30,821 nt of DNA from a virus (lineage: Duplodnaviria > Caudoviricetes), in the IMG/VR virus record IMGVR_UViG_3300042399_001275, positions 1 to 30,821 of that record; one strand, written 5' to 3'. The position numbers were made by a program, and so were the translations under genes. How positions within the stretch are numbered: position 1 is the first letter of the stretch; every line of letters starts with the position of its first letter. Below, piece by piece: positions 4,414 to 26,705 of this stretch. The notes below the pieces were generated by a model. It searched no databases. It saw only the letters and a list, made by a program, of their open reading frames with translations, and was not told the origin of the DNA.

Positions 4414-4915
4414 CCATCTGCTCCTTGAGTTTCAGCTTACGCAACGAGAACGCCCAACGCAAGGCGCGCTCGTATCCGGGGTTGTTCCGGCACGCCTTGA
4501 TGTGGTCGCGGAACGCTGCCCGTTCGGCAGGCTCCAGGGTGCGCCACCGCCCCGCGTTCACGTCGGCTAGTAGCGCGAAGGCTTCAGCCTGCTCATGTCC
4601 CCAGTCTCGACTGGCAGGATAGACGCGATCGTGAACGGCATGCCCAATCTCATGAACAAGTTGCGCCACTCCTGCTGTCGCGGGGCAGAAAAGGAATGCG
4701 GTATCTGCCGCAGTATCGGAGACGAAAGCTGGTCTTCCGGAATGAACAGGTCCAGTTGGACGGGTGTAGCCCCACTCTCGGACGAGGGTGTCGACGTAGT
4801 CTTCCCGGAAATGGTCATCCACGATCCTTACGTTCTTCAGCCCACGCCACAGGTAATTGCCCCATACGCAATGCGCAACCAGTAGTTCTGCACCCGACGC
4901 TGTACGAAACTTCAG
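4394..4915 (-). CDS. Putative zinc metallopeptidase (HExxH), possible CTG start
   Basis: LVHEIGHAVH followed by EQAEAFA (gluzincin/ImmA-IrrE-like layout). The track start is 4948, but GGAGG lies 8 nt before an in-frame CTG at 4915 that overlaps the upstream TGA. Confidence 0.6.
   Translation of the reverse strand: MKFRTASGAELLVAHCVWGNYLWRGLKNVRIVDDHFREDYVDTLVREWGYTRPTGPVHSGRPAFVSDTAADTAFLFCPATAGVAQLVHEIGHAVHDRVYPASRDWGHEQAEAFALLADVNAGRWRTLEPAERAAFRDHIKACRNNPGYERALRWAFSLRKLKLKEQMDAIAKG
4567..4818 (-). CDS. Candidate overprinted +1-frame ORF containing QLDLF (sliding-clamp-binding motif)
   Basis: 83 aa nested in the HExxH gene. AAGGA lies 6 nt before the ATG, and the ORF coincides with A/T-ending codons in the host frame. 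Confidence 0.35.
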   Translation of the reverse strand: MTISGKTTSTPSSESGATPVQLDLFIPEDQLSSPILRQIPHSFSAPRQQEWRNLFMRLGMPFTIASILPVETGDMSRLKPSRY

Positions 4916-5040
4916 GACGGCGTCCTCCCGTAGTACAAGATATACCAAGTGAGATATGCACGGGCTCTAGCGGCCTGAAGTTCAACCACCGTGAGAGGCA
5001 CGCACTCATCAGCCTCGCGGCCCAACCAAAAGTAATACAT
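4912..5040 (-). CDS. Small hypothetical protein (42 aa)
   Basis: MYYFWLGREADECVPLTVVELQAARARAYLTWYILYYGRTPS. TAATG coupling to the upstream gene, with AAGGAGG upstream. Confidence 0.5.
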   Translation of the reverse strand: MYYFWLGREADECVPLTVVELQAARARAYLTWYILYYGRTPS

Positions 5041-5420
5041 TACAATACCTCCTTACGGCCATGAGTAAGCGTTACCAGATTACCCGCCCGGTCTTCATGC
5101 CACCGATTTACCCAAGGACCGCGAAACGAGATCGCCCACGCCGGGCCGCCCAGGGCTTCTACTTTATGGAAGTGTTCTCGCTTCGTGATCTTGGTCTGCC
5201 CTGCTTTGAACAGTCGAGGTTGGCCGCCCCTTATGTGCTCACGTACCTGGCCTTTCAACCATATCGTATAGGCGTTGAAAGCGTGGGTGTGGTAGCGCTC
5301 GGGGTTGTGGCGGCTGAACCGTAGCAACGCGATCGAAAATAAAGGCTTGATCTCGATCAGGAAATACGCAGTCGTACCGGAGTTGACCCCGCCGTCCGGG
5401 GCCTTCTGAAACATCTTCAT
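5040..5420 (-). CDS. Cupin-like phage protein
   Basis: 126 aa. YHTHAF...WLKGQVREH...HFHKV matches the cupin HxH...E...H pattern. GGAGG RBS. Confidence 0.7.
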   Translation of the reverse strand: MKMFQKAPDGGVNSGTTAYFLIEIKPLFSIALLRFSRHNPERYHTHAFNAYTIWLKGQVREHIRGGQPRLFKAGQTKITKREHFHKVEALGGPAWAISFRGPWVNRWHEDRAGNLVTLTHGRKEVL

Positions 5421-5429
5421 CCCATCCTC

Positions 5430-6881
5430 CTACAACACCGCCGTCTGTTGAAGATAGTCTTGCCCCTGCTCGGGGGCGAACTTGCGAAGACCCATCGCGA
5501 GGGTCCTCAGTGCATCCGCACTGTGAGACGTCCAATCGTGCTTGGGCTTCTGGCGGAATACCTGCTGCCGTTCATCATACTCTCGGTGGTACAGAGCCAC
5601 GCGGTCAAGGCCATCCTGCGTTGAGCTTGCGTCAAAGAGGCAGCGCGGCAGAAGTGTTCGTACCGCTGCAATGCCGTCCTCCACGTTGGCGCGCGGAACA
5701 GTGACGCCACGAACTCCAAGGGCACGGAGGACAGAGGCGCGGGACTTGCCCGAACCAAGCTCGGTGACTTCGACGTCGTGCGGCCAGTAGTGTCGTCCAT
5801 AGCGATACCCCTTCTTCTCCAGTATATCGGCGTAGTGGTCTAGCGCGGCTCCAGCAGCTTCGTAATAGTCAATGACACGTACTTCGTTAGCCACGCATTG
5901 CACAAACCAGATTGCGGTGCAATCGTCGAAACCCAAGTCCCATCCAGTGTGGACTGGCAGGAGAGGATTGTAGGGCACAGCCCGAATACGGTCACGGTCT
6001 TTAAGCTCGGCCAGTTGCTTGGCGTAGATGGCTCCCTTGACGGCGGCGTCCCAGCTACATTCGTACTCCTGCTCGTAGGCGTCGTCATCGTTCATGTCCA
6101 TCTTGGCCAGGCGTAGCTCCTCGGGATTGAGGACGCCGGTCTGACTGGCCTTCCAAAGTTCCGCGGCCCAGTCACTACGATACACCAACTCGTCGCCCGC
6201 CGCACTGTCGATCTCGCCGCCACCCATCTTCGCGCCCAAGCCCTGCGCCCACAACTCCGCGCGGCGGTGCATGTGGTGGGCGTGGTTGCGCCCGAACGGG
6301 GTCGTCATAAAGATCGCCCACTGGTTCGGGTCGAGGCGATTGTCGAAGCCGTTACGGTTTACGTCCGACAGCATTGGGCGGACCTGCTGCGTCCACACGT
6401 GCGGCGGTATCTGCGCCCACTCGTCGAACACTACACCGTCCAGGTACATGCCTCTCAAACGCTGCTTGGGTGTATCTGTTCCGTAGAGGGCAATCTGAGC
6501 ACGCCCACCAAGGCGGGTTGGCAATTCCACCGTGAGCTTGCTCTCCATCTTTTCCGCCGTAGGGATACGATCGGCGAAGTCCTTCAAGTATGTCCAGGCA
6601 ATGTTGCGGGCCATATCGTAGGTCGGGGCCAGGTAGGCATACCGCCCGTTGGGGAACGGACACTCGATCGCTTTCTCGCCCAGGGCGTTCACGGCCAGGA
6701 CGGACTTCCCGAAGCGGCGATGCACCACCCACGAGTTAAAGCGCTTCATGCGCTCGTACATCTGGCCCTGCAAGGGGCGCGGGATGAAGCGCGTAAGCTC
6801 CCTCACGTCCTCGGGCAGGTCTACGATGCGGTTGTTCTGCGTCGCCTTGACGATCGCGGCGACCTTGGCAATGAGGCTCAA
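5430..6881 (-). CDS. terL: Terminase large subunit
   Basis: Walker A HRRFGKS, LRG, Walker B VVFDEW, coupling motif TTP, YEQEYEC, RNase H-like GWDLG and C-terminal HSADA. Confidence 0.95.
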   Translation of the reverse strand: MSLIAKVAAIVKATQNNRIVDLPEDVRELTRFIPRPLQGQMYERMKRFNSWVVHRRFGKSVLAVNALGEKAIECPFPNGRYAYLAPTYDMARNIAWTYLKDFADRIPTAEKMESKLTVELPTRLGGRAQIALYGTDTPKQRLRGMYLDGVVFDEWAQIPPHVWTQQVRPMLSDVNRNGFDNRLDPNQWAIFMTTPFGRNHAHHMHRRAELWAQGLGAKMGGGEIDSAAGDELVYRSDWAAELWKASQTGVLNPEELRLAKMDMNDDDAYEQEYECSWDAAVKGAIYAKQLAELKDRDRIRAVPYNPLLPVHTGWDLGFDDCTAIWFVQCVANEVRVIDYYEAAGAALDHYADILEKKGYRYGRHYWPHDVEVTELGSGKSRASVLRALGVRGVTVPRANVEDGIAAVRTLLPRCLFDASSTQDGLDRVALYHREYDERQQVFRQKPKHDWTSHSADALRTLAMGLRKFAPEQGQDYLQQTAVL

Positions 6882-7333
6882 GCGTTCAGCACCTTCTCAT
6901 ATTTCTTCTTGGCCCCCATTGGCTGATCCGTTCTGCGCTCCGGTTTTGATGCGCTATTCCAGTCGCCCCCTCGTGTCGTGGCCACCAATTTCCACCCCGC
7001 CGCCTCCACAGACACCCCCGGCTCCTCGTCCAGAATAAACGTCTGAATAGACTTGTAGCCCATTGCCTTGCACGCACGCGCGGCGGCGGCGTACAGGATA
7101 GAGCAGGCGTTCTTTGTCCCGTCTGTGACCAGGCGCGTGACCTCGGCCACTTCGTATTGCTCTGTGTTACGCGCGACTGGCCTCCCAATGATAGCCGCGC
7201 CATGAACTCCTCCCCATTCGTTGCGCACCCCCAGGCTAAAGCGATGCCCCGTCACAGGCTTGTGGTGGCGATGGTCGGTTGCGACAATCTCATTAGCTTG
7301 TTTCAAGGTAAGCGGGAATACTTCAAGGGTCAC
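6878..7333 (-). CDS. XF1762-family protein (Mom-like/GNAT-fold, putative DNA modification)
   Basis: ANEIVATDHRHHKP..GHRFSLG, GRPVAR, EVTRLVTDGTKNACSILY, EPGVSVEAAGW. Overlaps the terL start (ATGA). Confidence 0.8.
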   Translation of the reverse strand: MTLEVFPLTLKQANEIVATDHRHHKPVTGHRFSLGVRNEWGGVHGAAIIGRPVARNTEQYEVAEVTRLVTDGTKNACSILYAAAARACKAMGYKSIQTFILDEEPGVSVEAAGWKLVATTRGGDWNSASKPERRTDQPMGAKKKYEKVLNA

Positions 7334-7593
7334 ACCAACTCCCTCATTTCAACGATGTACGCTTTCGGGATGCACACGTCGCTACCCGCGGTGCCGTCTT
7401 CCTCGCAGATCGAGCCCACGAGGACAACGCACTTGTCATCCTCCTTGGCCAGGAAGCCGACCGACTGGATGATGGCCGGACCGGAGTTCTGTATCTCCTC
7501 CCAACTGATCCACCCGCCCGTGTCCTGGCTGGAGGCGTCTTCCCAGCGGATGCGGACAAGACGGGTGGGCATCGTGAAGGGTGCGTGGGCCAT
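7330..7593 (-). CDS. Conserved small phage hypothetical protein
   Basis: V.I.WEDA....GW...SVGFL...IP...I pattern, common in phage packaging regions. ATGA coupling. Confidence 0.7.
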   Translation of the reverse strand: MAHAPFTMPTRLVRIRWEDASSQDTGGWISWEEIQNSGPAIIQSVGFLAKEDDKCVVLVGSICEEDGTAGSDVCIPKAYIVEMRELV

Positions 7594-7607
7594 GGTCTAT
7601 TGTAGCA

Positions 7608-8177: not shown

Positions 8178-8290
8178 AGTTCATCCTAAATTTTAAAAAA
8201 TAACCCAATATTTCCAACCGTGATGGGGCAGGGGCCGGGGACCCATCCTGGCGGCGGGGGTAGGGGGGTCGCGATCGCCAGATTTCGGGG

Positions 8291-8358
8291 GGTATGTTAT
8301 AACATTCCAACCCAGGGGCGAGTGAGCGCTCACTACCTATCGCCAACCGGCTAGGGGG
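8291..8358. promoter_or_regulatory. Left palindrome cluster of the early island
   Basis: Perfect palindromes ATGTTATAACAT (8294-8305) and AGTGAGCGCTCACT (8321-8334), plus CGGCTAGGGGG (8348-8358). Counterparts occur at 11513-11625. Confidence 0.55.
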
Positions 8359-8699: not shown

Positions 8700-8707
8700 G
8701 CGCTTAA

Positions 8708-12603: not shown

Positions 12604-13020
12604 ATGAAAGGACCACCCGTGGCCGACGATCTTGAGCTTATCCGCCTGCGCCAATTCCGCGACGATGTCCTGCGAGCCGTGAAGAAGCTCGGTCACCTGG
12701 AGCGCCCGCGCAAGTCGCGTTCGCCCTCCCCCGCCGCGGAGCGCCTCGATTGGTACGGCTACTGCTACGACGCCCTCGTGGCGCAGCGCAAGCGCTACCC
12801 AGGGGCCTGCCAGATGACGGTCGACGCGATCGTGAAGGGTGGGGACTGGAGCGGCAAGACTGCTCAACAGAAGGCCCGCCTGGCGCGCTGGCTGCGCATG
12901 GTTACCGGTCGCAATGGGGAAGGGCTGGACCCTTCTCACCCGATGGCCCCCGCCTACGTGGGGACACACCCTCTAAGGTTTGCGTGGAGCCCTGACCTCA
13001 CTCCCCCTCCGGAGGAATAA
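12604..13020 (+). CDS. Hypothetical protein (start possibly GTG 12619)
   Basis: 138 aa, GC3-rich, with its own promoter and AAAGGA before the GTG. Convergent with, and overlapping, the primase 3' end. Confidence 0.7.
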   Translation: MKGPPVADDLELIRLRQFRDDVLRAVKKLGHLERPRKSRSPSPAAERLDWYGYCYDALVAQRKRYPGACQMTVDAIVKGGDWSGKTAQQKARLARWLRMVTGRNGEGLDPSHPMAPAYVGTHPLRFAWSPDLTPPPEE

Positions 13021-14956
13021 CACCTCCCCGGAAGCCTGTAACCGCCTTGGTCCCGATCGCACGCGGGGCCAGAGGGTGCGCGGTGTTAAGCGCGCCCCGA
13101 TTGAACACGGAACGCAGCCACGCCGCCGCGCCCCGCACGCCCTCCGTCTCCATCCACTTTGCCAACTCCGGCACCAGCACTTCCGGCCCACTCGCCACCA
13201 GATACTTCTCCGCAATCTGGCCGCGGTTCATTTCTACCGCGATCGTCTCGGTGATCTGACGCTTGCGTATCGCCTCGTCCTTGGGCGCGGTCATCGTTTC
13301 CGGCTCGGCTGCGTCCTCGGCCACGCCCTCCAGCACCAGGCTCGTCTCAGGCTCGTCTCCCTCCTCGACTGGGAACCCCGTGGGGACCTGCTTCATGAGC
13401 CCCCGCCACACCATGCCCTCCATGCCATCCTTCTGGCGCACCAGTTTCAGGCGGCAGGACAGTGGGCGCACCTTCTCGACCAGAAGGCCAGTGTCGAGGG
13501 CGTTCCACATGGCGATCGCGCCCCTCCAATCCCGGCTGCCCTTCGGGGTGTGGTGCACCAGCATGACACAGCACTGAAAATGCAGGCGCAGCGAGTTACA
13601 TGTATCTGCGATTTCGCCCATGTCCTTCGTTGCGTTCTCCTCCTGGCCGGGGGTCGCCCGCGCCAAGGTGTCAACGATGACCAGCACCGGGCCTTTGCCG
13701 CCCCATTTCTCCTCCTTTGCGGCGGCTACACCCCCCAGCAGGCTCTCAAGCTGGGCGGCGTCGGCCAGGTCGATACCGTCCCATACCGCCAGGTTATCGG
13801 ACACCATTGTATTGTGGTGCTTCTCCCAGGCCCTCACGCGCGGGTCGATCGTACCTTCTCCGCTGATATACACCACCGGGCCTTCCGCCCGCACGTCGCG
13901 CTCCAACCACGTCTTCTTGCCGCTGGCCAGTGTGCAGGCGAGGTCCAGCGCCACGAACGACTTGTATGCCCCACCGGGGCCGTACACGCCCGCCAGGCTG
14001 TTCTTCGCGAATACCCCCCTCACCAGCCACGGGGGCTTCGGGCGGCTGCGCCTTTCCGACCAGTAGGTAAGCTTTCGTTTACCTCGGCCATGCGGCGCTT
14101 GCTCCCGCGCTTCTCCAAGGTCGAAACCTTCAGCGGCGCGGTTGCGGGTGCCTTCGTCGATTGCGTCGATGCCGGGTTGCCTTTGGCCGTTCTTGTACGC
14201 CGACCGAACGGTAGCATTGAACTCCTCCTCGTTTTCCTCACACAGGGGCGGGTTTCCCGTCACACTGGGGTGATCCTCCAGCACCTCAAATATCTTTGAA
14301 AGGGAAAGCCCCAAGTCTTTCAAAGTGCAGGCCGTCTTGAAAACGTTTATGTTGCGCTGCCCCTCGTCCGGGGACGGCAGGTTGCGCACGAAGGACAGCG
14401 CCCTCTCGACGTTGGCGGGCTGGTCCAGCTCGACGCGCGGCGTTTCTCGGTCTTCACTGACTTCCCTTTTGCCTTGGGCAAGGGCTTGGAGGAGGCCGGG
14501 GGGCGCGACCAGACAATCAGTTGTAGCGCAGGGCGGTTCATCCCCGTAAGCGTAGACGAAGCCAAGCCCACCCTCTCCAGTCCCTCCTCTGGTATCAAGA
14601 CCTTCACCGAGCAAACGCTGAACGGATGAGGGGGCTTGCCCGAATAGAAAGATATGACGCCCTCCCGTGGGGGTAGATTGCTGCGGGTATTCCCACGCTT
14701 CGAAGTCATGTTCTGCCTCCAGTTTTGCCAGTGAAGTTTCGCCGTCCTTGCCGTTTTTCACGTCCACGTCGATCACGAAGCAGCCCGCCAGACCCGGCAC
14801 CGCAGCTACGCGAGCGTCCGTCCAATCCCACGCACGAATGATGGCCTCGTCCGTGGTAGCCTTCTTCTGCCACTCCTTGATGGCCGGGTGGCCGGTTGAA
14901 CTACAGGGGAACACGGGCCACCCTGCCGCGGCCCAGGCCAATGCACGATCGAGCAT
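12998..14956 (-). CDS. Bifunctional primase-polymerase fused to a RecA-like (AAA_25) helicase
   Basis: N-terminal GWPVFP, VIDVDVKNG and TPTGGRH (Prim-Pol); EGQRN primase C-terminal motif; Walker A GPGGAYKS; VYISGEG; Walker B VIVDTL; LVHHTPK. Confidence 0.92.
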   Translation of the reverse strand: MLDRALAWAAAGWPVFPCSSTGHPAIKEWQKKATTDEAIIRAWDWTDARVAAVPGLAGCFVIDVDVKNGKDGETSLAKLEAEHDFEAWEYPQQSTPTGGRHIFLFGQAPSSVQRLLGEGLDTRGGTGEGGLGFVYAYGDEPPCATTDCLVAPPGLLQALAQGKREVSEDRETPRVELDQPANVERALSFVRNLPSPDEGQRNINVFKTACTLKDLGLSLSKIFEVLEDHPSVTGNPPLCEENEEEFNATVRSAYKNGQRQPGIDAIDEGTRNRAAEGFDLGEAREQAPHGRGKRKLTYWSERRSRPKPPWLVRGVFAKNSLAGVYGPGGAYKSFVALDLACTLASGKKTWLERDVRAEGPVVYISGEGTIDPRVRAWEKHHNTMVSDNLAVWDGIDLADAAQLESLLGGVAAAKEEKWGGKGPVLVIVDTLARATPGQEENATKDMGEIADTCNSLRLHFQCCVMLVHHTPKGSRDWRGAIAMWNALDTGLLVEKVRPLSCRLKLVRQKDGMEGMVWRGLMKQVPTGFPVEEGDEPETSLVLEGVAEDAAEPETMTAPKDEAIRKRQITETIAVEMNRGQIAEKYLVASGPEVLVPELAKWMETEGVRGAAAWLRSVFNRGALNTAHPLAPRAIGTKAVTGFRGGVIPPEGE

Positions 14957-14959
14957 TAC

Positions 14960-15322
14960 TTATTGGTTTCCTTTGGTTCGTCTGCGGTTGTATTCGCGCT
15001 GCCAGGCAAGGCGACGCTCTCGTTCTTCTGCGGTTTCGATAGAACGACGGAAACGGGTTGCAGCAATCTGGCGTTTATACCAAAGCCGGTCGCGAGGCAT
15101 CGTACGTGTTCCGCCGCGGCTCGTCGAAGCTCCACGTCGTTTGGCCGCAGCACAGTCCAGAACTTCTCCGAGCAGAACACGATCGCCCTTCTCCCTTCCG
15201 AACTTCGGCACTACTTTCAGAAAACCGCTTTGTATCCAACGGTTTACGGTGTTGGGGTACACCTTGGCCACCTTCGCAGCCTGCTTGACGGTCAACACCC
15301 GGCGTCGGTCTAGCGTATCCAT
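14960..15322 (-). CDS. Helix-turn-helix DNA-binding protein (excisionase/MerR-like HTH)
   Basis: LTVKQAAKVAKVYPNTVNRWIQSGFL, with a basic C-terminus. Confidence 0.8.
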   Translation of the reverse strand: MDTLDRRRVLTVKQAAKVAKVYPNTVNRWIQSGFLKVVPKFGREKGDRVLLGEVLDCAAAKRRGASTSRGGTRTMPRDRLWYKRQIAATRFRRSIETAEERERRLAWQREYNRRRTKGNQ

Positions 15323-15399
15323 GATACCCGAAAAGTTGCCTGTTGCGCCAGTGGTCTATATCACGGTACAATATTTCCGTCGAATTTGAAGGAGGGATC

Positions 15400-15897
15400 A
15401 TGGAACAACGTAAGCACACGAACCCGGACGGCTCTGTCGTCACGATCTATGTTGGCGAGCGCGCCACGATTGGCGACGAGGCCAGGATTGGCGAGTGGGC
15501 CATTATTGGCGAGTGGGCCATTATTGGCGAGGGGGCCAGGATTGGCGAGGGGGCCAGGATTGGCGAGGAGGCCAGGATTGGCGAGTGGGCCAGGATTGGC
15601 GAGTGGGCCAGGATTGGCGAGTGGGCCAGGATTGGCGAGTGGGCCAGGATTGGCGAGGGGGCCATTATTGGCGACGAGGCCATTATTGGCGACGGGGCCA
15701 TTATTGGCGAGGGGGCCAGACGCCATGCGGTACGTTCGGACGGACATGTGTTTACTGTAGGCACCTTGGATGGTGTTCCTACGGTGTGGGCGGGCTGTCG
15801 TGTGTTCAATGAGCAGGAGGCCCGCACACACTGGGGCGACCCGGGGCATCCGCATCGCGCCGAGACGCTGGCCATCCTCGATTTCCTGTTTCGCTAG
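15400..15897 (+). CDS. Hexapeptide-repeat (left-handed beta-helix) protein
   Basis: Start moved to ATG 15400 (GGAGG RBS). 15 x IG[ED]xAx repeats, then C-terminal RSDG..F...AGCR.F...EA..HW. Confidence 0.85.
   Translation: MEQRKHTNPDGSVVTIYVGERATIGDEARIGEWAIIGEWAIIGEGARIGEGARIGEEARIGEWARIGEWARIGEWARIGEWARIGEGAIIGDEAIIGDGAIIGEGARRHAVRSDGHVFTVGTLDGVPTVWAGCRVFNEQEARTHWGDPGHPHRAETLAILDFLFR
15451..15720 (+). repeat. Coding tandem repeat, 15 x 18 bp
   Basis: Consensus ATTGGCGAG(TGG/GGG/GAG)GCC(AGG/ATT), with four identical consecutive units. Confidence 0.95.
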
Positions 15898-16088: not shown

Positions 16089-17704
16089 AACTCACGCTCA
16101 ACGACGACGTCTACCTGTGGGGCGGGCGCGAAGCTGAAGTCGAGACACTGGCCAAGGATGCTGGTCTAACCCTCTCGACCACGGCTTCGCGCTCGCGCGG
16201 GCACAACGTCTACTTTACACCCGAGCCTCACGCGGTTCTGCATCTGTGGAACCACGCGGACGAGAAGGCCAAGGCGGCGCTGCAGCCGCTTCGTACCGAG
16301 TGGGAGCGTTCCAACCTGAACGAGGCCCCACCGGGCTTCAGCGTCCCGGTGCCAGAGTTCTGCGAACTTATGCCATTTCAGATTGCAGGCGTGCATTATG
16401 CAAAAGACCGAGCTAACTGCCTTATTGGGGACGCACCGGGTCTTGGTAAGACGATCCAAGCCATCGCCCTGGCTAATCTGCGAGGATGCAAAAGGGTCCT
16501 TGTGGTTTGTCCAGCAAACGTCCGCCCCCAGTGGGCACGCCAGATTAAAATTTGGTCTACGCTGCCGCGCGTCGTCGTCTATCCGGTGTTCAAGTCTTCA
16601 GATGGGGTACACCCGACCGCGAACTACGTCATCACGAGCTTCGAAGTAGCCCGTGACGGACTATGGGACACGCTACGCTCCTACAACTGGGACCTGTTGG
16701 TGATCGATGAAGGACATTATCTCAAGACCCCTGACGCCGCGAGAACACGCGCGCTTTTTGGTGCTAGCAAGCAGAGTAAATGCCGCTATGCTGGAACTGG
16801 CGGCATTTCTGAACGAGCCGAGCAGATCGTTGCCCTCACTGGAACTCCTCTGCCCAACCGACCCCGCGAATGCTATACGCTGGCAAATGCACTGGACCCC
16901 TCGTCAGTAGACTGGATGAACTTCAACTCGTTCAAGGACCGCTTCAATCCCGGTGGCCGGGACATGGACAGTGGGGCGACGTGGGAGTACACCGCACGCC
17001 TGCCCGAGTTGAACGCCCGCCTGCGCTGTAACTTCATGGTGCGCAGGCTGAAGGAGGACGTGCTGAAGGACCTTCCGGCCAAACGGTACGAAATCGTCCC
17101 GGTGGAGTTGACGGGTAAGATTGCGATGGCCCTGCACGCCGAGAAGATGCTGGACTTCGACGAAGAAGAAATGCTGCGCCGATCAGGAGGCAAAATTGAC
17201 GGAGCAATCTCTACAGTGCGTCGCCAGATGGGAGAAGCAATGGCGTCTGCCGTTCTTGAACACCTGCTTACGCTTCTCGACGGCGGGGTCGAAAAGCTCG
17301 TCGTATTCGCGCATCACCACTCTGTCCTGGAAGTCCTCCAAAAAGGTATGGCGCGACATGGTTGTCTTAGAGTGGATGGTGGGACCTCCGCAAGAGGGAA
17401 GAACCAAGCGGTCGAGAAGTTTAAGTTTGACCCTCGGCTGAAGGTGTTTCTCGGCCAGATGCAGTCGATCGCCACAGGCACGGACGGTTTGCAGGACGTT
17501 GCGACTCACTGCGTACTGGCCGAGGCGTCATGGGTGCACGGCGACAATGAGCAGGCAGTCGATCGACTGCATCGCATGGGGCAGAAAGGTTCGGTCCTGG
17601 CGCAGCTTATGGTCGCACCGGGCTCGATCTCGGAGCGCATCCTGGGGCGTAGCATTTCCAAGGGGCGCACAGTGCAGAAGGTTTTGGATGGAGCGCCAGT
17701 CTAA
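16085..17704 (+). CDS. SNF2-family helicase
   Basis: LMPFQ, DAPGLGKT, LVVCP, DEGH, LTGTP.PNRP, MVRRLK, VVFAHH, QAVDRLHRMGQ. Confidence 0.95.
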   Translation: MKLTLNDDVYLWGGREAEVETLAKDAGLTLSTTASRSRGHNVYFTPEPHAVLHLWNHADEKAKAALQPLRTEWERSNLNEAPPGFSVPVPEFCELMPFQIAGVHYAKDRANCLIGDAPGLGKTIQAIALANLRGCKRVLVVCPANVRPQWARQIKIWSTLPRVVVYPVFKSSDGVHPTANYVITSFEVARDGLWDTLRSYNWDLLVIDEGHYLKTPDAARTRALFGASKQSKCRYAGTGGISERAEQIVALTGTPLPNRPRECYTLANALDPSSVDWMNFNSFKDRFNPGGRDMDSGATWEYTARLPELNARLRCNFMVRRLKEDVLKDLPAKRYEIVPVELTGKIAMALHAEKMLDFDEEEMLRRSGGKIDGAISTVRRQMGEAMASAVLEHLLTLLDGGVEKLVVFAHHHSVLEVLQKGMARHGCLRVDGGTSARGKNQAVEKFKFDPRLKVFLGQMQSIATGTDGLQDVATHCVLAEASWVHGDNEQAVDRLHRMGQKGSVLAQLMVAPGSISERILGRSISKGRTVQKVLDGAPV

Positions 17705-19467: not shown

Positions 19468-19805
19468 AGTGGTGGGTCCTCGCCGCCGCGGTCATCCTGT
19501 GGGCGTCTGTTTTCATGGTCGCCCCGGCCCATGCGCACGATCAGTACAAGGACTGGAAAGCATGGGACGGAGGCTCGTGCTGCTCCGAGCGGGTTGAACA
19601 CCCGAACGGCCATGTGACGGGTGACTGCCGCCCGGTGCGTGCAACACAGGACATGGACGGCAACTGGATCGCCTACGAACGAGGGAAAGAATACCGTATC
19701 CCGCCACAGGCCATCCGCCCCATCCAGTCCCCGGACGGGCGCAGCCACCTGTGTGAAATGCACGGCCATATCTTCTGTTTCGTTCCTGGAGAGGTGCGCT
19801 CGTGA
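19464..19805 (+). CDS. Secreted Cys-rich protein
   Basis: Start at ATG 19464. Signal peptide ending AHA, then SCCS...DCRPV...SPDGRSHLC...IFCFVP. Confidence 0.75.
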   Translation: MKWWVLAAAVILWASVFMVAPAHAHDQYKDWKAWDGGSCCSERVEHPNGHVTGDCRPVRATQDMDGNWIAYERGKEYRIPPQAIRPIQSPDGRSHLCEMHGHIFCFVPGEVRS

Positions 19806-20050
19806 CCTGGTTCCTGACCCTGTGGCCGAAGATAAAGTTGTGGGCGATCGGCGCGGGTATTGCGCTGGTGTTCGTCGGCATACTAATATGGAGGGTGTTC
19901 GACGCTGGGCGTAACGAGGAGAAGATCAAGCAGGTTGAAGCCGTGTTGACCAACGTGCGCCGCGCCGCAGAGGCCCGCGCACAGGAGAGAGGGAAGCCTA
20001 CCAATGCTGAAGATGACGAATTTAACCGTGATCGCTGGGGTCCTCGCTAG
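19802..20050 (+). CDS. Putative i-spanin (Rz-like)
   Basis: N-terminal TM (WAIGAGIALVFVGILIW) and a helical periplasmic part, overlapped at the 3' end by a lipoprotein ORF. Confidence 0.7.
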   Translation: MTWFLTLWPKIKLWAIGAGIALVFVGILIWRVFDAGRNEEKIKQVEAVLTNVRRAAEARAQERGKPTNAEDDEFNRDRWGPR

Positions 20051-20183
20051 CTGCACCCCCGTCCCGATCGATACCTTCTGCACCAGTTACATTCCGGTCA
20101 GTTACTCGGCGTCACGTGACACGCCCGAGACGGTGCGCCAGGTCCAGGAGAACAACGCGGTGTGGAAGAAGCTATGCAAGTAG
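20004..20183 (+). CDS. Putative o-spanin (Rz1-like lipoprotein)
   Basis: Read by hand: MLKMTNLTVIAGVLASCTPVPIDTFC...ENNAVWKKLCK (59 aa). Lipobox LASC; +1 overlap with the i-spanin. Confidence 0.75.
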   Translation: MLKMTNLTVIAGVLASCTPVPIDTFCTSYIPVSYSASRDTPETVRQVQENNAVWKKLCK

Positions 20184-21340
20184 AGCTTCCCGCCCACTCC
20201 AAACTCGGCGCGTCCAGCACGCACCGCTGGTTCCATTGCCCTGGCAGCGTGAAGTTGATCGAGGCCATGGGCGACACGGCCAAGAAGTCCAGTTCCTACG
20301 CCGACGATGGCACGCTGGCGCACGACATTGCGGCACGCTGCCTGAAGTCGGGGGAGGATGCCAAGGTCTACATTGGGGAAGCGGACTTCGCTACGGAGGC
20401 GGTGTTCAAGGAGGAAGACGCTGTCGCGGTACAGGTCTATCTCGACGCGGTGCGCAAGGAGATCGACGAGTTGGGCCTGCGCGGCAAGAAGATGGGTTCG
20501 CGCGTGCTGGTGGAGGAGCGCTTCCACCTGGCCGAAGTGCATCCCGACTTCTTTGGGACCACGGACTGCACTCTGATCGGCAAGACACAGGCCCAGGTGT
20601 GGGACTACAAGCACGGTGCCGGTATTATGGTATCGGCGGAGAAGAACACCCAGTTGATGCAGTACGCCGTGGGAGCATTGTATGGAACAGATGCGTGGGG
20701 GGATGACAACTTCCCCGTCGAGATCAACATCTGTCAGCCGCGAGTATACGGGGTGGAGCCTGTTAGATCGTGGTGGACAAGCGTGGGCGCACTCAAGGCA
20801 TGGCTGCGTGACGATTGGCTTGCCGCCGCAAGAAGGACAGAACAGCCGTCTCCATTTCTACAGCCTGGTCCTTGGTGCAACTCCTCCTTCTGCCCCAAGC
20901 GACTGACCTGCCCTGCCATCAAGGAAATGCGGGCGCGTGTCCTGACCTACACACCGGAGATCATCAAGGCCATGGAAGACTGGGAACTGGGCCTCGCGGC
21001 CACCGAGACGAACATCGTGAAGGGCTTGGCCAAGGTCTTCGACGAGGAGATTTTCACCCGCCTGCGTGCGGGCAAGCAGATCAGCGGTTGGAAGATGGTG
21101 GCGAAGAAAGCTGATCGTGTGTTCAAGGACGACGCCCCGGTGGCCGACACGTTCGGTGAAGCGGCGTACGAGAAGAAGCTGAAGACACCCCCGGCCATCG
21201 AGAAACTGGAGGGCGGCAAGGACTTCGTGAAGAAGTACGCTTACAAGCCCGACACCGGCATGACCGTAGCCCCGGATACCGACGCCAGGGCGGGCCAAGC
21301 GGTGCGCAACCGTGACGCTGTTTTTGAAGGGAAGTTGTGA
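20174..21340 (+). CDS. DUF2800 / Cas4-like PD-(D/E)XK exonuclease
   Basis: HSKLGASS..RW..CPGS, GTLAH, FGTTD, DYKHG, QL..YA.GA, and Cys cluster WC...CP....CP. Start at 20162 or 20174. Confidence 0.9.
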   Translation: MQVELPAHSKLGASSTHRWFHCPGSVKLIEAMGDTAKKSSSYADDGTLAHDIAARCLKSGEDAKVYIGEADFATEAVFKEEDAVAVQVYLDAVRKEIDELGLRGKKMGSRVLVEERFHLAEVHPDFFGTTDCTLIGKTQAQVWDYKHGAGIMVSAEKNTQLMQYAVGALYGTDAWGDDNFPVEINICQPRVYGVEPVRSWWTSVGALKAWLRDDWLAAARRTEQPSPFLQPGPWCNSSFCPKRLTCPAIKEMRARVLTYTPEIIKAMEDWELGLAATETNIVKGLAKVFDEEIFTRLRAGKQISGWKMVAKKADRVFKDDAPVADTFGEAAYEKKLKTPPAIEKLEGGKDFVKKYAYKPDTGMTVAPDTDARAGQAVRNRDAVFEGKL

Positions 21341-22309: not shown

Positions 22310-22693
22310 TTGCATATAACGATCGAAGAATGGAGGCAGGTAGTCGGGCACGCTGGCTACCAAGTTAGTAGTCTAGGCCGAGTTCGTAGCGTCCCCCGCG
22401 TTGTCCGCGGGCGTAGGTATAAAGGCCAGATGCTAAAACCTGGCGTGGCCAGTAGCGGCTATCCCACTGTAGCCATTGGTCGGAACAACACTAAGACGGT
22501 TCATTCGTTGGTGGCCGCCGCGTTCATTGGGCTCTGCCCAACGGGGCAAGAGGTTCGCCATAAGGATGGGGATAGAAGGAACCCGCGTCTTACTAACCTG
22601 GAGTATGGAACCCGTACTGAAAACATACGTGACGCTATGCGACATGGAACATGGGATCATAAGGACCATTATGCACGTCACCATAGATTTTGA
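22310..22693 (+). CDS. NUMOD4-HNH homing endonuclease
   Basis: EEWRQVVG...YQVSSLGRVRS (NUMOD4) and VHSLVAAAFIG...VRHKDG...N....NLEYGT..EN (HNH). More AT-rich than its neighbours. Confidence 0.92.
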   Translation: MHITIEEWRQVVGHAGYQVSSLGRVRSVPRVVRGRRYKGQMLKPGVASSGYPTVAIGRNNTKTVHSLVAAAFIGLCPTGQEVRHKDGDRRNPRLTNLEYGTRTENIRDAMRHGTWDHKDHYARHHRF

Positions 22694-24677
22694 GAGCTAC
22701 AGCGAGGCCGACCTCAAGAAGACGGGGGCCTACAAGTATTCGGAGCATCTCAGCACTGAAGTCTTGTGCTTGGCATACGCCTTCAATGACGAGGAGCCGA
22801 TCCTGTGGCACCCCGGTCCCGGCGCTACACACCCCGCGGGACTTCTTCAGGCTATCAGAGCGGGTGCGGTGGTCGACGCCCACAACGTCGGCTTTGAGCG
22901 CGCTATATGGGAGAACGTCTGCGTTAAGCGCATGGGCTGGCCCGAGATCGAGGCCCACCAGTACGACTGCACGATGGCTCGTGCGGCCAGTAGGGCGCTG
23001 CCTCTTGGGCTGGAGCAATGCGCCGCGGCCCTCGGGCTGGACGTGCGCAAGGACAAGCGCGGCAAGCAGCTAATCAACCTCCTGTGCAAGCCGCAGAAGC
23101 CCAAGAAGAAAGACCCGCGCACCCGCATCCAGGACCCGGAACTACTGGCCGAACTGTACGACTACTGCAAGCAGGACGTGCGTGTCGAGCAGCGTATTCG
23201 CAGGGAGTTGGGCGCGCTGCCCGCCCCCGAGCGGGGGGTGTTCCTGCTGAATGAGAAGATGAACTCGCGCGGCATTACGATCGACGTAGAGAGCGTGCAC
23301 AACGCCATCGCGATCGTGAAGGAAGTCGAGAAGGAACTGACCGCGGAGCTTGTCGAAATCACGGGCGGCAGGATAGAGACGGCCAACCAGGTGGCCGAGA
23401 TACTGGACTTCGTTCAATGGAAAGTGGATGGAGGATTGGATGACCTCACGGCAGACACCGTCGCAGCGGCGATCCCTCGCGCGGAAGCAGGCTCCGTCGA
23501 GCGGCGTGTACTTGAGATCAGAGCGTCGCTTGCGAAGGCCAGTACGAAGAAACTGGCTGGACTACTTGCTGCTGTATGTGCGGATGGCCGTGTTCGTGGC
23601 CTCTCGCAGTATCATGGCGCTTTCACGGGCCGTAATGCGGGGCGTCTCGTCCAGCCGCTCAACCTACCGCGACCTAAGCTAGACGCCGACCCGGAGAGCC
23701 TGATCGAGGCCATCGCCACCCGCGATCCCGACTGGCTGCGTATGATGTACGGCGACCCCATGCAGTGCGTGGCCGACGCCCTGCGTCCCATGTTCATGGC
23801 GGGGGAGGGCCAGAACCTCTGCTCCGTCGACCTGGCGTCGATCGAAAGCGTGGGTATCGCGGCCATCGCAGGAGAGGAGAGCAAGCTTGAGGTATTCAGA
23901 CGAGGAGACGATCCATACTGCGTGTTTGCTAGCGCTGCTCTTGGTCGAACGATCACGAAGGCAAACGACCCGAAGGCGCGTCAGGACGTGGGTAAGGTGG
24001 GGGAGCTTGCTTTTGGTTTTGGCGGGGGTGTTGGGGCTTGGCGCAATTTTGACGACAGCGACAGGTTTGATGACGATGAAGTAAACGGCTTCAAGAACGC
24101 ATGGCGGCGCAAGCATCCCAACATCGCCCGCCCGCCGTGGGATCAGGAAGTGAAGGACGGTGAGGCCGGTGTGGGCCTGTGGTATGGCCTACAGGACGCA
24201 GCGCACGAGGCCGTGCTGCGCCCCGGCAAGCAGTGTGAGGCGTTCGGGGTGAAGTACCAGGTGCGGGGGAGGTGGCTCGTATGCACCCTGCCCTCCTCGC
24301 GCAACATCGTCTACTACGATCCTCTGCTCAAGGAGAAGATCAACCCCCACACGGATAGGTCCGAAGTGGTGCTGACTTACATGAGCCAGAAGTCTGGCCA
24401 CTGGCAGCGCATCGATACGTGGGGCGGGAAGCTGGCGCAGGGCGTGACGCAGGCGACGTGCCGCGATATCCTTGTGCATGGCCAGCGTCGGTGCGACCCT
24501 GAAATGCCCGTGCTGATGACTGTGTACGACGAGATCGTGACGGAGGTCGACGAGGAATTAGGTGTTGATCTCCCGGTCGAGCGCCTGATAGAATTTATGG
24601 TAGGCGATCTTCCAGCCTGGTGCGCCCATTGGCCCGTCAAGGCGGAAGGCTGGTGCGGCAAGAGGTACAGGAAATAA
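22671..24677 (+). CDS. polA: Family A DNA polymerase with a 3'-5' exonuclease domain
   Basis: Start moved to ATG 22671 (AAGGA). Exo motifs TIDFES, AHNVGFE and YCKQDV; TGR; motif A DLASIE; motif B RQ..GK..ELA.G.GGG; motif C YDEI. Confidence 0.93.
   Translation: MHVTIDFESYSEADLKKTGAYKYSEHLSTEVLCLAYAFNDEEPILWHPGPGATHPAGLLQAIRAGAVVDAHNVGFERAIWENVCVKRMGWPEIEAHQYDCTMARAASRALPLGLEQCAAALGLDVRKDKRGKQLINLLCKPQKPKKKDPRTRIQDPELLAELYDYCKQDVRVEQRIRRELGALPAPERGVFLLNEKMNSRGITIDVESVHNAIAIVKEVEKELTAELVEITGGRIETANQVAEILDFVQWKVDGGLDDLTADTVAAAIPRAEAGSVERRVLEIRASLAKASTKKLAGLLAAVCADGRVRGLSQYHGAFTGRNAGRLVQPLNLPRPKLDADPESLIEAIATRDPDWLRMMYGDPMQCVADALRPMFMAGEGQNLCSVDLASIESVGIAAIAGEESKLEVFRRGDDPYCVFASAALGRTITKANDPKARQDVGKVGELAFGFGGGVGAWRNFDDSDRFDDDEVNGFKNAWRRKHPNIARPPWDQEVKDGEAGVGLWYGLQDAAHEAVLRPGKQCEAFGVKYQVRGRWLVCTLPSSRNIVYYDPLLKEKINPHTDRSEVVLTYMSQKSGHWQRIDTWGGKLAQGVTQATCRDILVHGQRRCDPEMPVLMTVYDEIVTEVDEELGVDLPVERLIEFMVGDLPAWCAHWPVKAEGWCGKRYRK
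23887..24084 (+). CDS. Candidate overprinted +1-frame membrane protein inside polA
   Basis: GGAG 7 nt before TTG. 65 aa with hydrophobic ACLLALLLV and WGSLLLVLAGVLGLGAILTTA, matching a T-ending codon patch. Confidence 0.35.
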   Translation: MRYSDEETIHTACLLALLLVERSRRQTTRRRVRTWVRWGSLLLVLAGVLGLGAILTTATGLMTMK

Positions 24678-24988
24678 TGGGAAAACTAAGTCGCGACAAG
24701 GGGAAGGTGGGTGAGCGCGAAGTGGCCGCGCTCCTCCGCGAGTATGGCTTCGAAGGCAAGAGGGGGGTGCAGTATCAGGGCGGCAAGGACAGCGCCGACG
24801 TCACCGGCTTGCCGGGCTTTCATATCGAGGTCAAGCGCACGGAGAAGCTGAACCTTGAGGCGGCCATGGCCCAGGCGCGGGCGGACTGCGGGGGCAACAC
24901 CCCAATGGTGCTTCACCGCAAGAGCAAGAAAGATTGGGTCGTCATCATGGATGCCAGTGATTTCCTGAAGATGGTGAGGGGGTTTTAA
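24677..24988 (+). CDS. Holliday junction resolvase-like PD-(D/E)XK nuclease
   Basis: MGKLSRDKGKVGEREVA...ADV...IEVKR. TAATG coupling with polA. Confidence 0.85.
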   Translation: MGKLSRDKGKVGEREVAALLREYGFEGKRGVQYQGGKDSADVTGLPGFHIEVKRTEKLNLEAAMAQARADCGGNTPMVLHRKSKKDWVVIMDASDFLKMVRGF

Positions 24989-25179
24989 TGGCGAAGCTGG
25001 ATGGGGTTAGCAAGGAACTGTATCCGGGTGAAGCGGAGGGCGTGTTTCGCGACATGGAGCGTCGCCGCAGGGCCGCCGAGCGAACTAACTTCCGTATATC
25101 CAACGAGCGGTTCGTCGAGCGCAGGGTGGCCTCGGGCTACAAGATCGTCTACAAGAACGTCGGAGGTTTCCGTGGATAG
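24988..25179 (+). CDS. Hypothetical protein
   Basis: 63 aa, TAATG coupling, GAGG RBS. Confidence 0.6.
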   Translation: MAKLDGVSKELYPGEAEGVFRDMERRRRAAERTNFRISNERFVERRVASGYKIVYKNVGGFRG

Positions 25180-25321
25180 CTGGATCATCATAGGGCTGGC
25201 CCTCCTGTTCTGGCCGGTCATCGCCGCGTCGATCATCCTGACGGGGGTACTCGTCTGGTTCATGTGGCTGATCGCCCTCTCGACCATCAAGGGAATATGG
25301 GGTGACTTCTTTGGCCGTTAA
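25172..25321 (+). CDS. Small membrane protein (49 aa)
   Basis: GGAGG before GTG 25172. Long hydrophobic run WIIIGLALLFWPVIAASIILTGVLVWFMWLIAL. Confidence 0.65.
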   Translation: MDSWIIIGLALLFWPVIAASIILTGVLVWFMWLIALSTIKGIWGDFFGR

Positions 25322-26705
25322 GCGATACCTGTTCTCGTGCATGCAGAATGATACTCCTCTGCACCGCCCGACGTGGAACAACCTGCTGGCCTTGGCCAAG
25401 CACTACAACGCACAGATCGTTCTGTCGCGCTTCGTCTACGACATGGCGGCGCACAACGAGAGCGGCAAGCCACGTATGAAGTCTGCCCGCGAGGAGCGAT
25501 CGTGGGCGCGGGATGCCATGCCATATGTCCTCGACGAGCGCATGGTCGTGGCCAAGGGTCTGGAGTGGTGCGGCGAGTTGCAAATCCTGCCCACCGCGCG
25601 CCGCCCGATCAGCGGCTTCGAAAGCTACACCGGGCGCAACTCGTGCATCATCCCGCACCCCAAGGTGGCGCTGGAGAGTGTGGCGTCGGGCAAGCACGAA
25701 AGCACCAAGCTGATCTACACGACGGGCTGCGTCACTCGGAAGAACTATATCCAGAAGAAGGCGGGCCAGGTGGCGCAGTTCCACCACGCCTACGGCGCGC
25801 TCCTCGTCGAGGTGTCCGACCACGGGTGGTTCTGCCGCCAGGTCACGGCCACCGAGAACGGCACCATGTACGATCTGGACCTGCGGGTGAAGGACGGCAA
25901 GGTGACGACAGGCCACCGGGTCGAGGCGATCGTGTGGGGCGACGCCCACGTCCGCAAGGCCGACCCGGTCGTGGCCAAGTTGGCGTGGGCCAAGGGTGGT
26001 ATCCTGGATACCCTGCGCCCCAAGCGGCAGGTATTCCATGACCTGCTCGACTTCCATTCCCGGAACCACCACGAAATCGGCAACGGCAGGATGCGCTTCC
26101 GGCGCTACGTTGGCGACCCGGAGGATGACTGCGTCGGTGCGGAACTGGACGAGGTGGCTGTAGCACTGGCCAAGCGTAGCCGCTCCTGGTGCGAGAGCAT
26201 TGTTGTGGCCAGTAACCACGACGGCGCGCTGCTGCGTTGGCTGGACAGCGCGGACTACCGTAGCGACCCGCGCAACGCGCTCACGTTCCTCGATCTCCAG
26301 TCCGCGGTCTACCGGGCGGAGGCGGAAAAGGACCGTAGGTTTTCCGTGTTCGAACATGCTATGATGAAGCGCGGCATCAAGGGCGTGAACTTCCTGCGGG
26401 AGGACGACAGTTATGTCATTTGTAAGGACGCTAATGGTGGGATTGAGCTTGGTATGCACGGCCATCTTGGCGTCAATGGCGGGCGTGGTTCTATGCTTGG
26501 TTTCGCCCGAATGGGCCGCAAGTCATTTATCGGGCATGGCCACCGCGCTGGCATCGTTGATGGCGTTTGGATGGTTGGTACTTCTAGCCTCCTCGATCTT
26601 GGGTACAACTCGGGACCGGGGGCCTGGAGCCACACGTTCGGAGTAGCTTACCCGAACGGCAAGAGAGCAATGGCGACTATTTACGGAGGAGAGTGGCGTG
26701 GGTAG
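25302..26705 (+). CDS. T5 A1-like protein (metallophosphoesterase-fold nuclease)
   Basis: QNDT..H, ILPTA, YTTG.VT..NYIQKKAGQ.A.FHH.YGALLVEV, GD.H, HDLLDF..RNHH, SNHD, MHGH and GHGH. Matches the A1 family as recalled. Confidence 0.8.
   Translation: MTSLAVKRYLFSCMQNDTPLHRPTWNNLLALAKHYNAQIVLSRFVYDMAAHNESGKPRMKSAREERSWARDAMPYVLDERMVVAKGLEWCGELQILPTARRPISGFESYTGRNSCIIPHPKVALESVASGKHESTKLIYTTGCVTRKNYIQKKAGQVAQFHHAYGALLVEVSDHGWFCRQVTATENGTMYDLDLRVKDGKVTTGHRVEAIVWGDAHVRKADPVVAKLAWAKGGILDTLRPKRQVFHDLLDFHSRNHHEIGNGRMRFRRYVGDPEDDCVGAELDEVAVALAKRSRSWCESIVVASNHDGALLRWLDSADYRSDPRNALTFLDLQSAVYRAEAEKDRRFSVFEHAMMKRGIKGVNFLREDDSYVICKDANGGIELGMHGHLGVNGGRGSMLGFARMGRKSFIGHGHRAGIVDGVWMVGTSSLLDLGYNSGPGAWSHTFGVAYPNGKRAMATIYGGEWRG
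26413..26646 (+). CDS. Candidate overprinted +1-frame two-TM (holin-like) protein inside the A1-like gene
   Basis: GGAGG 9 nt before ATG. 77 aa with two hydrophobic segments and a charged C-tail; host-frame codons switch to T-ending over this span. Confidence 0.5.
   Translation: MSFVRTLMVGLSLVCTAILASMAGVVLCLVSPEWAASHLSGMATALASLMAFGWLVLLASSILGTTRDRGPGATRSE

Follow-up and report, generated by a model that had tools for sequence, protein, structure and literature searches.

Conserved patches of A/T-ending codons in the core genes of this phage are likely the trace left by about ten small genes overprinted on them, which would be read in the +1 frame by internal initiation on the mRNAs of the genes that contain them (hereafter host genes); sequence comparison puts the probability of this reading at roughly 0.8. 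An initial sequence-only reading had proposed about ten such genes in terL, primase, helicase, exonuclease, polA, and A1, and close relatives support this for the predicted products, with g184 and an HTH gene also carrying overprinted +1 candidates beyond those six host genes. ORFs of 65-120 aa were found at all 14 of the +1 starts it listed, and the o-spanin was found as well, in the window, i.e., the whole 30,821-nt stretch analysed. Around ten of them appear genuine, another two rank as moderate candidates, and two are doubtful (7203 in the Mom-like gene and 6088 in terL); if translated, they would make about 3 kb of the 31-kb fragment dual-coding. The features are as follows, each ORF being named below by its start.

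4567..4818, minus strand: nested +1 ORF of 83 aa in g184, carrying QLDLF; strong candidate
4744..4758, minus strand: QLDLF β-clamp-binding consensus in the +1 frame, within the invariant QLDLFIPE
5507..5800, minus strand: nested +1 ORF of 97 aa in terL; good candidate
5840..6088, minus strand: +1 ORF of 82 aa in terL; doubtful
6886..7203, minus strand: +1 ORF of 105 aa in the Mom-like gene; probably chance
14020..14217, minus strand: +1 ORF of 65 aa in primase; moderate
14347..14709, minus strand: nested +1 ORF of 120 aa in the Prim-Pol domain of primase; strong
14956..15180, minus strand: nested +1 ORF of 74 aa in the HTH gene (15322-14960); strong
16398..16649, plus strand: nested +1 ORF of 83 aa in helicase; moderate
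16707..16910, plus strand: nested +1 ORF of 67 aa in helicase; good
17196..17441, plus strand: nested +1 ORF of 81 aa in helicase; good
20004..20183, plus strand: o-spanin (phrog_1275, Rz-like spanin), a known type of +1 overlap with the i-spanin (19802-20050)
20682..20906, plus strand: nested +1 ORF in exonuclease, with clade start ATG 20703 (67 aa); good
23440..23682, plus strand: nested +1 ORF of 80 aa in DNA polymerase A, one hydrophobic segment; strong
23887..24084, plus strand: nested +1 ORF of 65 aa in DNA polymerase A, predicted two-helix membrane protein; strong
26413..26646, plus strand: nested +1 ORF of 77 aa in the A1-like gene, predicted membrane protein; strong

The fragment comes from an uncultured lake phage. 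A megablast search against cultured phages returned no match, and the best protein matches were 34% for the helicase and 52% for A1.

The patches themselves, as described from the sequence alone, proved real. Measured as the variance of the A/T-ending codon fraction (A/T3) in 40-codon windows against synonymous shuffles inside each gene, patchiness exceeded the shuffles in 8 of 21 genes (p<=0.005), namely primase, terL, helicase, exonuclease, polA, A1, g184 (a 184-codon gene), and HNH1, and was not significant in the other 13, including the internal virion protein, portal, SSB, lysin, tail, and g790. Patches are still present in places where about half of the codons have changed synonymously among relatives; in the polA patch at 23887, A/T3 stays at 0.48-0.63 in 9/9 relatives although 43-54% of its codons differ synonymously, versus 0.15-0.23 in polA outside this patch. 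In averages across the relatives, 11 of 13 ORFs show an increase of A/T3 past their start (p=0.01), and A/T3 falls past the +1 stop in 10 of 12, from 0.36 to 0.20 (p=0.002); the patch borders are less sharp on the 5′ than on the 3′ side. Some patches contain no nested ORF: terL codons 103-149 and a polA 3′ patch lying across a promoter-like site were both dropped as nested genes.

The wobble position of a host codon is position 2 of the overlapping +1 codon and thus sets the amino-acid class of the +1 residue. In GC3-rich genes the +1 frame holds 3.2% stops and is rich in Arg, Ser, Pro, and Thr, so that open frames arise easily, while A/T wobble bases are required for Leu, Ile, Val, Met, Glu, and Lys; inside the ORFs, Leu increases from 3.3 to 11.1% and Glu from 0.6 to 4.0%, and Arg decreases from 19 to 10%. 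By itself, openness of the +1 frame says little, because background codons leave each span open 4-77% of the time. With an SD of -5 kcal/mol or stronger, at least 55 codons, and at least 70% of the length inside an HMM-defined patch as criteria, 11 SD-led +1 ORFs were counted, against 2.8±1.3 in patch-preserving shuffles of eight chosen genes (maximum 7 in 400) and 3.4±1.4 in shuffles of all 24 genes (maximum 7 in 150); the +2 frame yielded 0 by the same criteria. Shuffled controls did not give as many such ORFs, and the excess repeats in 8/8 relatives (p<=0.013 each), which are not mutually independent.

For each gene, 6-11 distinct close relatives were compared, with L049 as the outgroup. 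Stop-creating +1 variants among relatives numbered 26 versus 47.6 expected (p=5e-4, distinct variants uncorrected for relatedness) and stop-creating +2 variants 88 versus 59, while no single ORF showed significant stop avoidance by itself. Within patches, 18 +1 stops were found against 29.1 expected (p=0.0015), compared with 24 against 23.7 in control low-GC3 genes; +2 stops were also fewer (57 versus 71.7, p=0.0065), mostly from g120 and g184. The remaining +1 stops of relatives lie mostly near ORF ends. Of the 12 candidates that could be scored, 10 kept their start within ±1 codon in at least 80% of the divergent relatives, versus 19 of 139 starts outside; since non-first starts inside ORFs were often kept too (37/83), part of this retention reflects general patch conservation. 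Lost starts are compensated by adjoining SD-led starts in helicase, polA (twice), exonuclease, and g184, and a conserved start with SD failed for 7203 and was weak for 6088 and 16398. The expected reduction of synonymous variation was clear in only 3 of 13 ORFs, and several ORFs vary more than the rest of their gene. Pooled invariant A/T four-fold sites amounted to 35/166 in ORFs versus 13/255 outside; a position-1 test for purifying selection on the +1 frame (ratio 0.66 inside versus 0.83 outside) was not significant, and a combined TTR+AGR test was null (p=0.69).

The g184 gene, which has an HExxH-like stretch, contains a +1 ORF that is open in 10/10 distinct sequences with its ATG at codon 0, 7, or 9, and whose four-fold sites are 50% invariant versus 5% elsewhere in the gene. 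Homologues of its product (P0001-P0003) are likewise 83 aa long with the motif present. QLDLF, given as the strongest clamp-binding consensus in PMC11139829, is kept in 12/12 clade sequences as well as in P0002 and P0003 and is absent from the outgroup, and the protein is otherwise variable outside the motif. The sole change in the QLDLFIPE stretch is a His>Tyr replacement in the host protein that is silent in the +1 frame, and a six-frame scan of the window found one exact QL[SD]LF, namely this site. An 8-bp palindrome lies within the same invariant stretch. No RNA run was listed among the sequencing runs containing this DNA, and variants from four DNA runs, given for 40 of 73 variant rows, were uninformative for the motif. 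Modelling of the 4818 protein with the E. coli clamp, standing in for that of the phage's host, gave a score of 0.74 versus 0.00 for the best control, with the peptide in the canonical pocket; the runs agreed in at least 47% of contacts with a partner pLDDT of at least 47, and the mark for such models is reached by 51 of 78 solved pairs and 2 of 108 mismatched pairs. This score may reflect memory of solved clamp-QLDLF complexes. The 4818 protein is thus predicted, on the model, to bind the host DNA sliding clamp: it would be a largely unstructured peptide with QLDLF docked in the β-clamp pocket, where it would either compete with the replication proteins of the host or recruit the clamp.

In terL, the 5800 ORF shares both its start and its stop across 9 of 11 sequences, is truncated at codon 67 in L047, and is broken in the outgroup. 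The 6088 ORF has a weak SD (-3.2) and no A/T3 rise at its start, and four relatives stop earlier, at codons 69-72. The 7203 ORF had been placed in an A/T patch, which is incorrect, as A/T3 is 0.29 in the ORF versus 0.45 elsewhere in the Mom-like gene; lying outside any patch, and with its ATG missing and the frame closed upstream in one of two relatives (the phage of L022), it was rejected as a nested gene.

The primase ORF at 14217 retains ATG and SD (-8.4 to -12.3) in 7/7 sequences, with the SD sitting in a Glu run of the host protein and A/T3 of just 0.26-0.40. The ORF at 14709 exists as proposed, with ATG and an SD of -9.3 in 7/7; its full length does not hold in the clade, the frame ending at codon 92-94 in 6/6 relatives (92-94 aa). 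Seven distant primases (28-32% identity) have SD-led +1 ORFs at the homologous position, and from these sequences an earlier or a repeated origin of the primase ORF is possible. The ORF nested in the HTH gene has GTG and an SD of about -8 in 7/7, with 0.40 versus 1.08 four-fold changes per site, and its TAA overlaps the primase ATG in a TAATG junction.

For the first helicase ORF, the TTG at 16383 had been taken as the start, and the ATG at 16398 is likelier: it is kept, with zero stops, in 7/7 sequences, the SD being weak, and 83% of four-fold sites are invariant versus 15%. The 16707 ORF is open with ATG in 7/7, pairs strongly solely with an extended anti-SD (-14.0), and keeps A/T3 at 0.51-0.58 even with 55-64% synonymous difference. 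The 17196 ORF starts with TTG in the window, and four relatives have an ATG one codon 3′ with an SD of about -10, which in two of the four immediately follows a stop; the ORF is broken in the phage of L059.

The exonuclease ORF is present at 20682, but its conserved start is the ATG at 20703 (codon +6/+7), which has an SD of -9.5 in 6 of 8 relatives; the stop is identical in all, and the start is lost in the phage of L025. Another exonuclease +1 ORF, at 20358, was rejected despite its SD of -8, as it has no patch and meets stops in relatives. In polA, the 23440 ORF has an ATG, GTG, or TTG start with an SD of -6 to -12.5 in 9/9 and 0 stops in the patch versus 2.9 expected (p=0.005), and its maximal KD19 of 1.4-2.9 exceeds the null p99 of 1.35. 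The 23887 ORF starts with TTG, or ATG at +1, with an SD of about -9 in 10/10; two hydrophobic segments are found in 9/9 relatives, which are 37-45% identical to the window's copy, and one in the window. The A1 ORF at 26413 has an identical ATG and stop and no internal stop in 12/12 sequences, a T3:A3 ratio of 29:4, and two to three hydrophobic segments in 12/12. The 23887 and 26413 proteins keep their hydrophobic pattern despite divergence to about 40% identity, and, with segments called from hydropathy windows, these two and the 23440 protein are predicted small membrane proteins of holin-, exclusion-, or toxin-like character.

Pfam and PHROG searches with the 14 nested ORFs gave no match at E<=0.001, only noise at E 0.01-0.03, and no spanin family. 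Homologue searches recovered clade members alone for 4818 (three) and 26413 (one), none for 16398, and no free-standing homologue, though distant ones of the 4818 protein may exist; the ESM Atlas yielded nothing usable for 16398 and, for g184, just unnamed clusters. A GTDB prophage and host search gave a single 47% helicase match, and local profiles run against distant loci matched solely in frames over homologous-sized host regions.

Could the patches serve the host gene itself? Conserved rare-codon clusters or RNA/DNA cis-elements, acting through slowed translation for folding, mRNA structure, or binding sites, would make the +1 ORFs by-products of a stop-poor frame. Position-conserved rare-codon clusters are described as widespread within domains (PMC5438181), distant phages also have patches at the corresponding place in primase, GAG-GAG codons yield SD-like motifs at no cost, +2 stops are low in patches too, and some patches lack a nested ORF. 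However, this explanation is unlikely: it gives no reason to expect surplus SD-led ORFs in the +1 and not the +2 frame at fixed patch composition, compensatory start shifts, the A/T3 fall at the +1 stop, a T-over-A bias that keeps hydrophobicity, or the clamp consensus, and the main patches scanned held no promoter-like site or repeat array. 

Coding +1 frames might instead be entered by SD-stimulated programmed +1 frameshifting, giving alternative host C-termini, a route that appears very improbable. Internal SDs are able to stimulate frameshifting, products joined by frameshifting, 10B among them, are entered in T7 records, and the +1 frame is frequently open 5′ of the starts; yet start codons are kept or replaced 5-9 nt past the SD, and a +1 stop just before the start in several relatives (helicase 17196, polA 23887, and g184) leaves no room for upstream entry. 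Least credible is the alternative named in the sequence-only reading, recombination patches from lower-GC relatives; on this view the patches would be slowly ameliorating imports, and the near-invariant helicase block a recent sweep. The phages do have mosaic genomes, with primase at 55-63% identity where helicase is at 87-97%, and the 16398 block is near-identical among relatives, with conservation extending about 27 codons beyond the +1 stop; together with the weak SD, this makes a recombination sweep possible for that ORF. The alternative nevertheless fails three tests: the patches survive synonymous turnover, as at polA 23887, which counts against low-GC imports; GC1 and GC2 are both higher inside patches (0.68 versus 0.63 and 0.50 versus 0.43); and Leu TTR codons are 2/81 inside versus 21/90 in patchily distributed low-GC3 genes. 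Moreover, +1 stops in the low-GC3 genes g790 and cdo are as frequent as expected. For most patches, recombination is largely refuted.

Under the preferred reading of small overprinted genes, ribosomes would initiate at internal SD-start pairs and not arrive by frameshift, as the +1 stop directly preceding the start in several relatives suggests. The genes were probably born de novo in the clade, because terL and g184 of L049, the one outgroup, have neither patch nor open +1 frame. Among 19 distant phage loci with GC3>=0.70, 17 include a gene with patches and 11 an A/T-rich +1 ORF led by an SD, judged against a weak null. A bolder generalisation, to which somewhat less than an even chance is given, is that GC-rich podoviruses routinely hold a second +1 layer in replication and packaging genes, a nursery of de novo host-takeover and membrane proteins including an overprinted β-clamp-binding inhibitor, which is missed by gene callers and can be found by A/T3 patches alone. 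If the ORFs are translated, roughly ten proteins escape standard annotation. The clade provides a natural series in which de novo gene birth is dated by presence and absence, and with A/T3 patches GC-rich phages can be screened for hidden genes simply by composition; a peptide predicted to bind the clamp and a number of new small membrane proteins are candidates open to direct testing.

A survey of annotated virus genomes reports that 74% of those counted have three or fewer overlaps, with dsDNA viruses forming a long tail (PMC7017920), and literature listings and the opening parts of abstracts contained no account of about ten nested +1 genes in one tailed phage. Embedded o-spanins such as lambda Rz1 in Rz are +1 overlaps described as overlooked by gene callers (PMC6139136); the window has an o-spanin of the same type at 20004, whereas the other nested ORFs are located away from the lysis cassette, within enzymes that have no evident link to them. 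The single-gene lysis (Sgl) proteins of ssRNA phages are presented as de novo, fast-evolving, often transmembrane, and +1-embedded, with 21 of 33 active ones within rep (PMC7693330), but the present phage is a tailed one with dsDNA, which encodes an endolysin and spanins of its own and has several membrane-type ORFs, for which a lytic role is only a candidate. Mu C/Mor is reported as a phage protein that engages the host clamp through a QL[SD]LF-type motif (PMC12867686); MuC is a folded transcription activator with its own gene, while the motif here sits in an overprinted 83-aa ORF. The closest likeness is to T7, another podovirus-type dsDNA phage, in which five SD-led genes of 40-112 aa (4.1, 4.2, 18.7, 19.2, and 19.3 in NC_001604), all in +1, are nested in replication, packaging, and lysis genes: 4.1 and 4.2 in primase/helicase, 19.2 and 19.3 in terL, and 18.7 as the o-spanin. 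A blastp comparison with these T7 nested proteins found no similarity (best E=0.075). In contrast to the five annotated in the 40 kb of T7, about 10-12 candidates occur in the 31-kb fragment, also in polA, exonuclease, the SNF2-type helicase, and A1, and they appear as A/T3 patches on a GC3-rich background. The phenomenon is of a known kind, that of the T7 nested +1 genes, and what is new is its density and the clamp motif.

The window, a linear IMG/VR record of 30.8 kb (GC 60.5%, estimated 49% complete), is present in sequencing runs from lake-water metagenomes and carries podovirus-type genes: portal, terL, Prim-Pol primase, SNF2-type helicase, endolysin, spanins, exonuclease, SSB, polA, an A1-like gene and an internal virion protein. 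Searches against cultured phages found no close relative. Scanning of viral and metagenome contigs yielded a clade at about 55-100% protein identity plus an outgroup (L049), giving 7-12 distinct sequences per tested gene, window included (only 3 for the Mom-like gene). The primase (12998-14956, - strand) is 95-100% identical in two relatives and 55-63% identical in five others that show 87-100% identity in helicase and terL, which points to module exchange. Lower GC3 and scattered +1 stops mark the patchily distributed genes for a 790-aa protein (1034-3406) and for cysteine dioxygenase-like (5040-5420), Mom-like (6878-7333) and HNH (22310-22693) proteins, which are probably recent acquisitions.

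The sequence-only reading had proposed that patches of A/T-ending codons in core genes mark small genes overprinted in the +1 frame. Every ORF it listed is present, and in 8 of 21 genes the patchiness of A/T at codon position 3 (A/T3) is significant. Some ten ORFs, named by start coordinate, are likely overprinted +1 genes (confidence about 0.8) whose translation and function we infer: 4818 (in g184), 5800 (terL), 14709 (primase), 15180 (HTH gene), 16707 and 17196 (helicase), 20703 (exonuclease), 23440 and 23887 (polA) and 26413 (A1-like). Confidence is moderate for 14217 (primase) and 16398 (helicase), while 6088 (terL) and 7203 (Mom-like) are doubtful.

Patches were delimited from composition alone with an HMM, and the synonymous shuffles kept in-patch and out-of-patch codons apart. 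In-patch +1 ORFs were scored if they had 55 codons or more and were led by a Shine-Dalgarno (SD) sequence. Eleven were observed, against 2.8±1.3 in shuffles of eight chosen genes and 3.4±1.4 in shuffles of all 24; the equivalent +2 count was 0. The shuffle control proposed with the original claim favors it, and the surplus corresponds to some 7-8 real ORFs under the SD/patch criterion, plus any with weak SDs. A blind rerun on relatives gave an excess in 8 of 8 (4-11 observed, p ≤ 0.013), which share ancestry and so are not independent. An open +1 frame alone is weak evidence, because background codons would leave each of these spans open in 4-77% of cases. After the start, A/T3 climbs in 11 of 13 ORFs, and beyond the +1 stop it returns to background in 10 of 12, a partly circular test in that candidates had been chosen for overlap with patches.

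Relatives' stops within the ORF spans mostly lie close to the 3′ end or directly precede a start that takes over, with mid-span breaks in the outgroup, in helicase 17196 of L059 and in terL 5800 of L047. Taking 13 ORFs together, 26 variants create a +1 stop against 47.6 expected (+2 frame, 88 against 59), with none of the 13 significant alone. Inside the window's patches, +1 stops are depleted (18 against 29.1 expected) and +2 stops are also low (57 against 71.7); control low-GC3 regions have no +1-stop deficit (24 against 23.7). For 10 of 12 scoreable candidates the start lies no more than one codon away in 80% or more of the divergent relatives, versus 19 of 139 outside starts; non-first starts inside the ORFs are often retained as well (37/83). 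The most telling conservation pattern is compensatory start replacement. Helicase 17196 exchanges its TTG for an ATG one codon downstream in four relatives, polA 23440 starts with ATG, GTG or TTG behind an unchanged SD, polA 23887 in L025's phage has a new stop followed immediately by a gained ATG, and the exonuclease and g184 ORFs have starts moved to ATGs 6-9 codons downstream, each with its own SD.

The patches could alternatively be segments imported from low-GC relatives. Against import, patches outlast synonymous change at 40-60% of codons; in polA 23887, for example, A/T3 is 0.48-0.63 versus 0.15-0.23 elsewhere in the gene. The A1 gene of L025's phage lacks A/T3 contrast (0.34 vs 0.32). 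GC1 and GC2 are higher within patches, TTR makes up just 2 of 81 Leu codons, and +1 amino-acid composition inside the ORFs shifts towards that of real proteins. Room is left for an explanation by rare codons (PMC5438181): the expected reduction in synonymous variation holds in 16398, 15180 and 4818 and fails in the other ORFs, the position-1 test for selection on the +1 frame is not significant, and TTR and AGR codons tested together give a null result. These results fit fast-evolving young overprinted genes selected for composition. One patch has a non-coding explanation, a promoter-like site:

24549-24641: A/T3 patch in the 3′ part of polA, carrying +1 stops and overlapping a sigma-70-like site (24565-24594)

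Within 14956-15443 (- strand), three frames are largely open over the HTH gene; +2 stops in its patch number 1 against 6.4 expected, and a third ORF spans 15443-15075. Nearby lies:

15343-15897, + strand: hexapeptide-repeat (left-handed beta-helix) gene with 18-nt repeats, adjoining the divergent promoter region

Within the 4818 ORF, QLDLFIPE is unchanged across all 12 of 12 clade sequences; read in the host frame, the stretch has A/T at seven wobble positions in a row, and its sole substitution changes the host amino acid but not the +1 one. In the outgroup the host segment differs and a stop falls at this place. The invariance could have a DNA-level cause in an 8-bp palindrome that the stretch contains. 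QLDLF, the only exact consensus match in the window's six frames, is given as the highest-affinity beta-clamp consensus in PMC11139829, and phage Mu C uses motifs of this type (PMC12867686). A complex model of the 4818 protein with the E. coli clamp, standing in for the host's, scored 0.74 versus 0.00 for the best control and placed residues 19-25 in the canonical pocket, with at least 47% of contacts agreeing between runs and partner pLDDT of at least 47; among reference pairs, 51 of 78 solved ones and 2 of 108 mismatched ones attain the mark. This pass may reflect recall, since like complexes are already solved.

In every relative the polA 23887 and A1 26413 products retain two or three hydrophobic segments, exceeding the 99th percentile of the null, in copies as divergent as 37-53% identity. 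They resemble the Sgl proteins embedded in genes of ssRNA phages (PMC7693330). Pfam and PHROG searches returned no family matches for the nested ORFs.

The phenomenon extends beyond the window, as in this gene:

L044 16356-17336; L050 15699-16724; L047 7212-8195; L049 9415-10377 (outside the window): probable scaffolding gene, by inferred identity

Its N-terminal Gly-rich linker is strongly A/T3-rich and crossed by a +1 ORF in all four; this ORF is open, 60-76 aa, Glu/Leu/Ala/Gln-rich and heptad-like in three relatives, and hydrophobic in the outgroup. Patchy genes are frequent in distant GC-rich phages (automatic gene calls, weaker null, each locus taken by itself). Of nine distant primase loci examined, seven yielded a gene (L027, L028, L030, L065, L071, L076 and L093; about four lineages, primase identity only 28-32%). 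Each of the seven has an A/T3 patch and an SD-led +1 ORF at the Prim-Pol position of 14709; in L076 and L093 this ORF ends in a hydrophobic segment.

The window's nested ORFs have no homology to those of T7. Gene callers routinely overlook embedded spanins (PMC6139136). Nested +1 genes are of an already known kind, because five +1 overlaps are annotated in T7, within its primase/helicase, spanin and terL genes.
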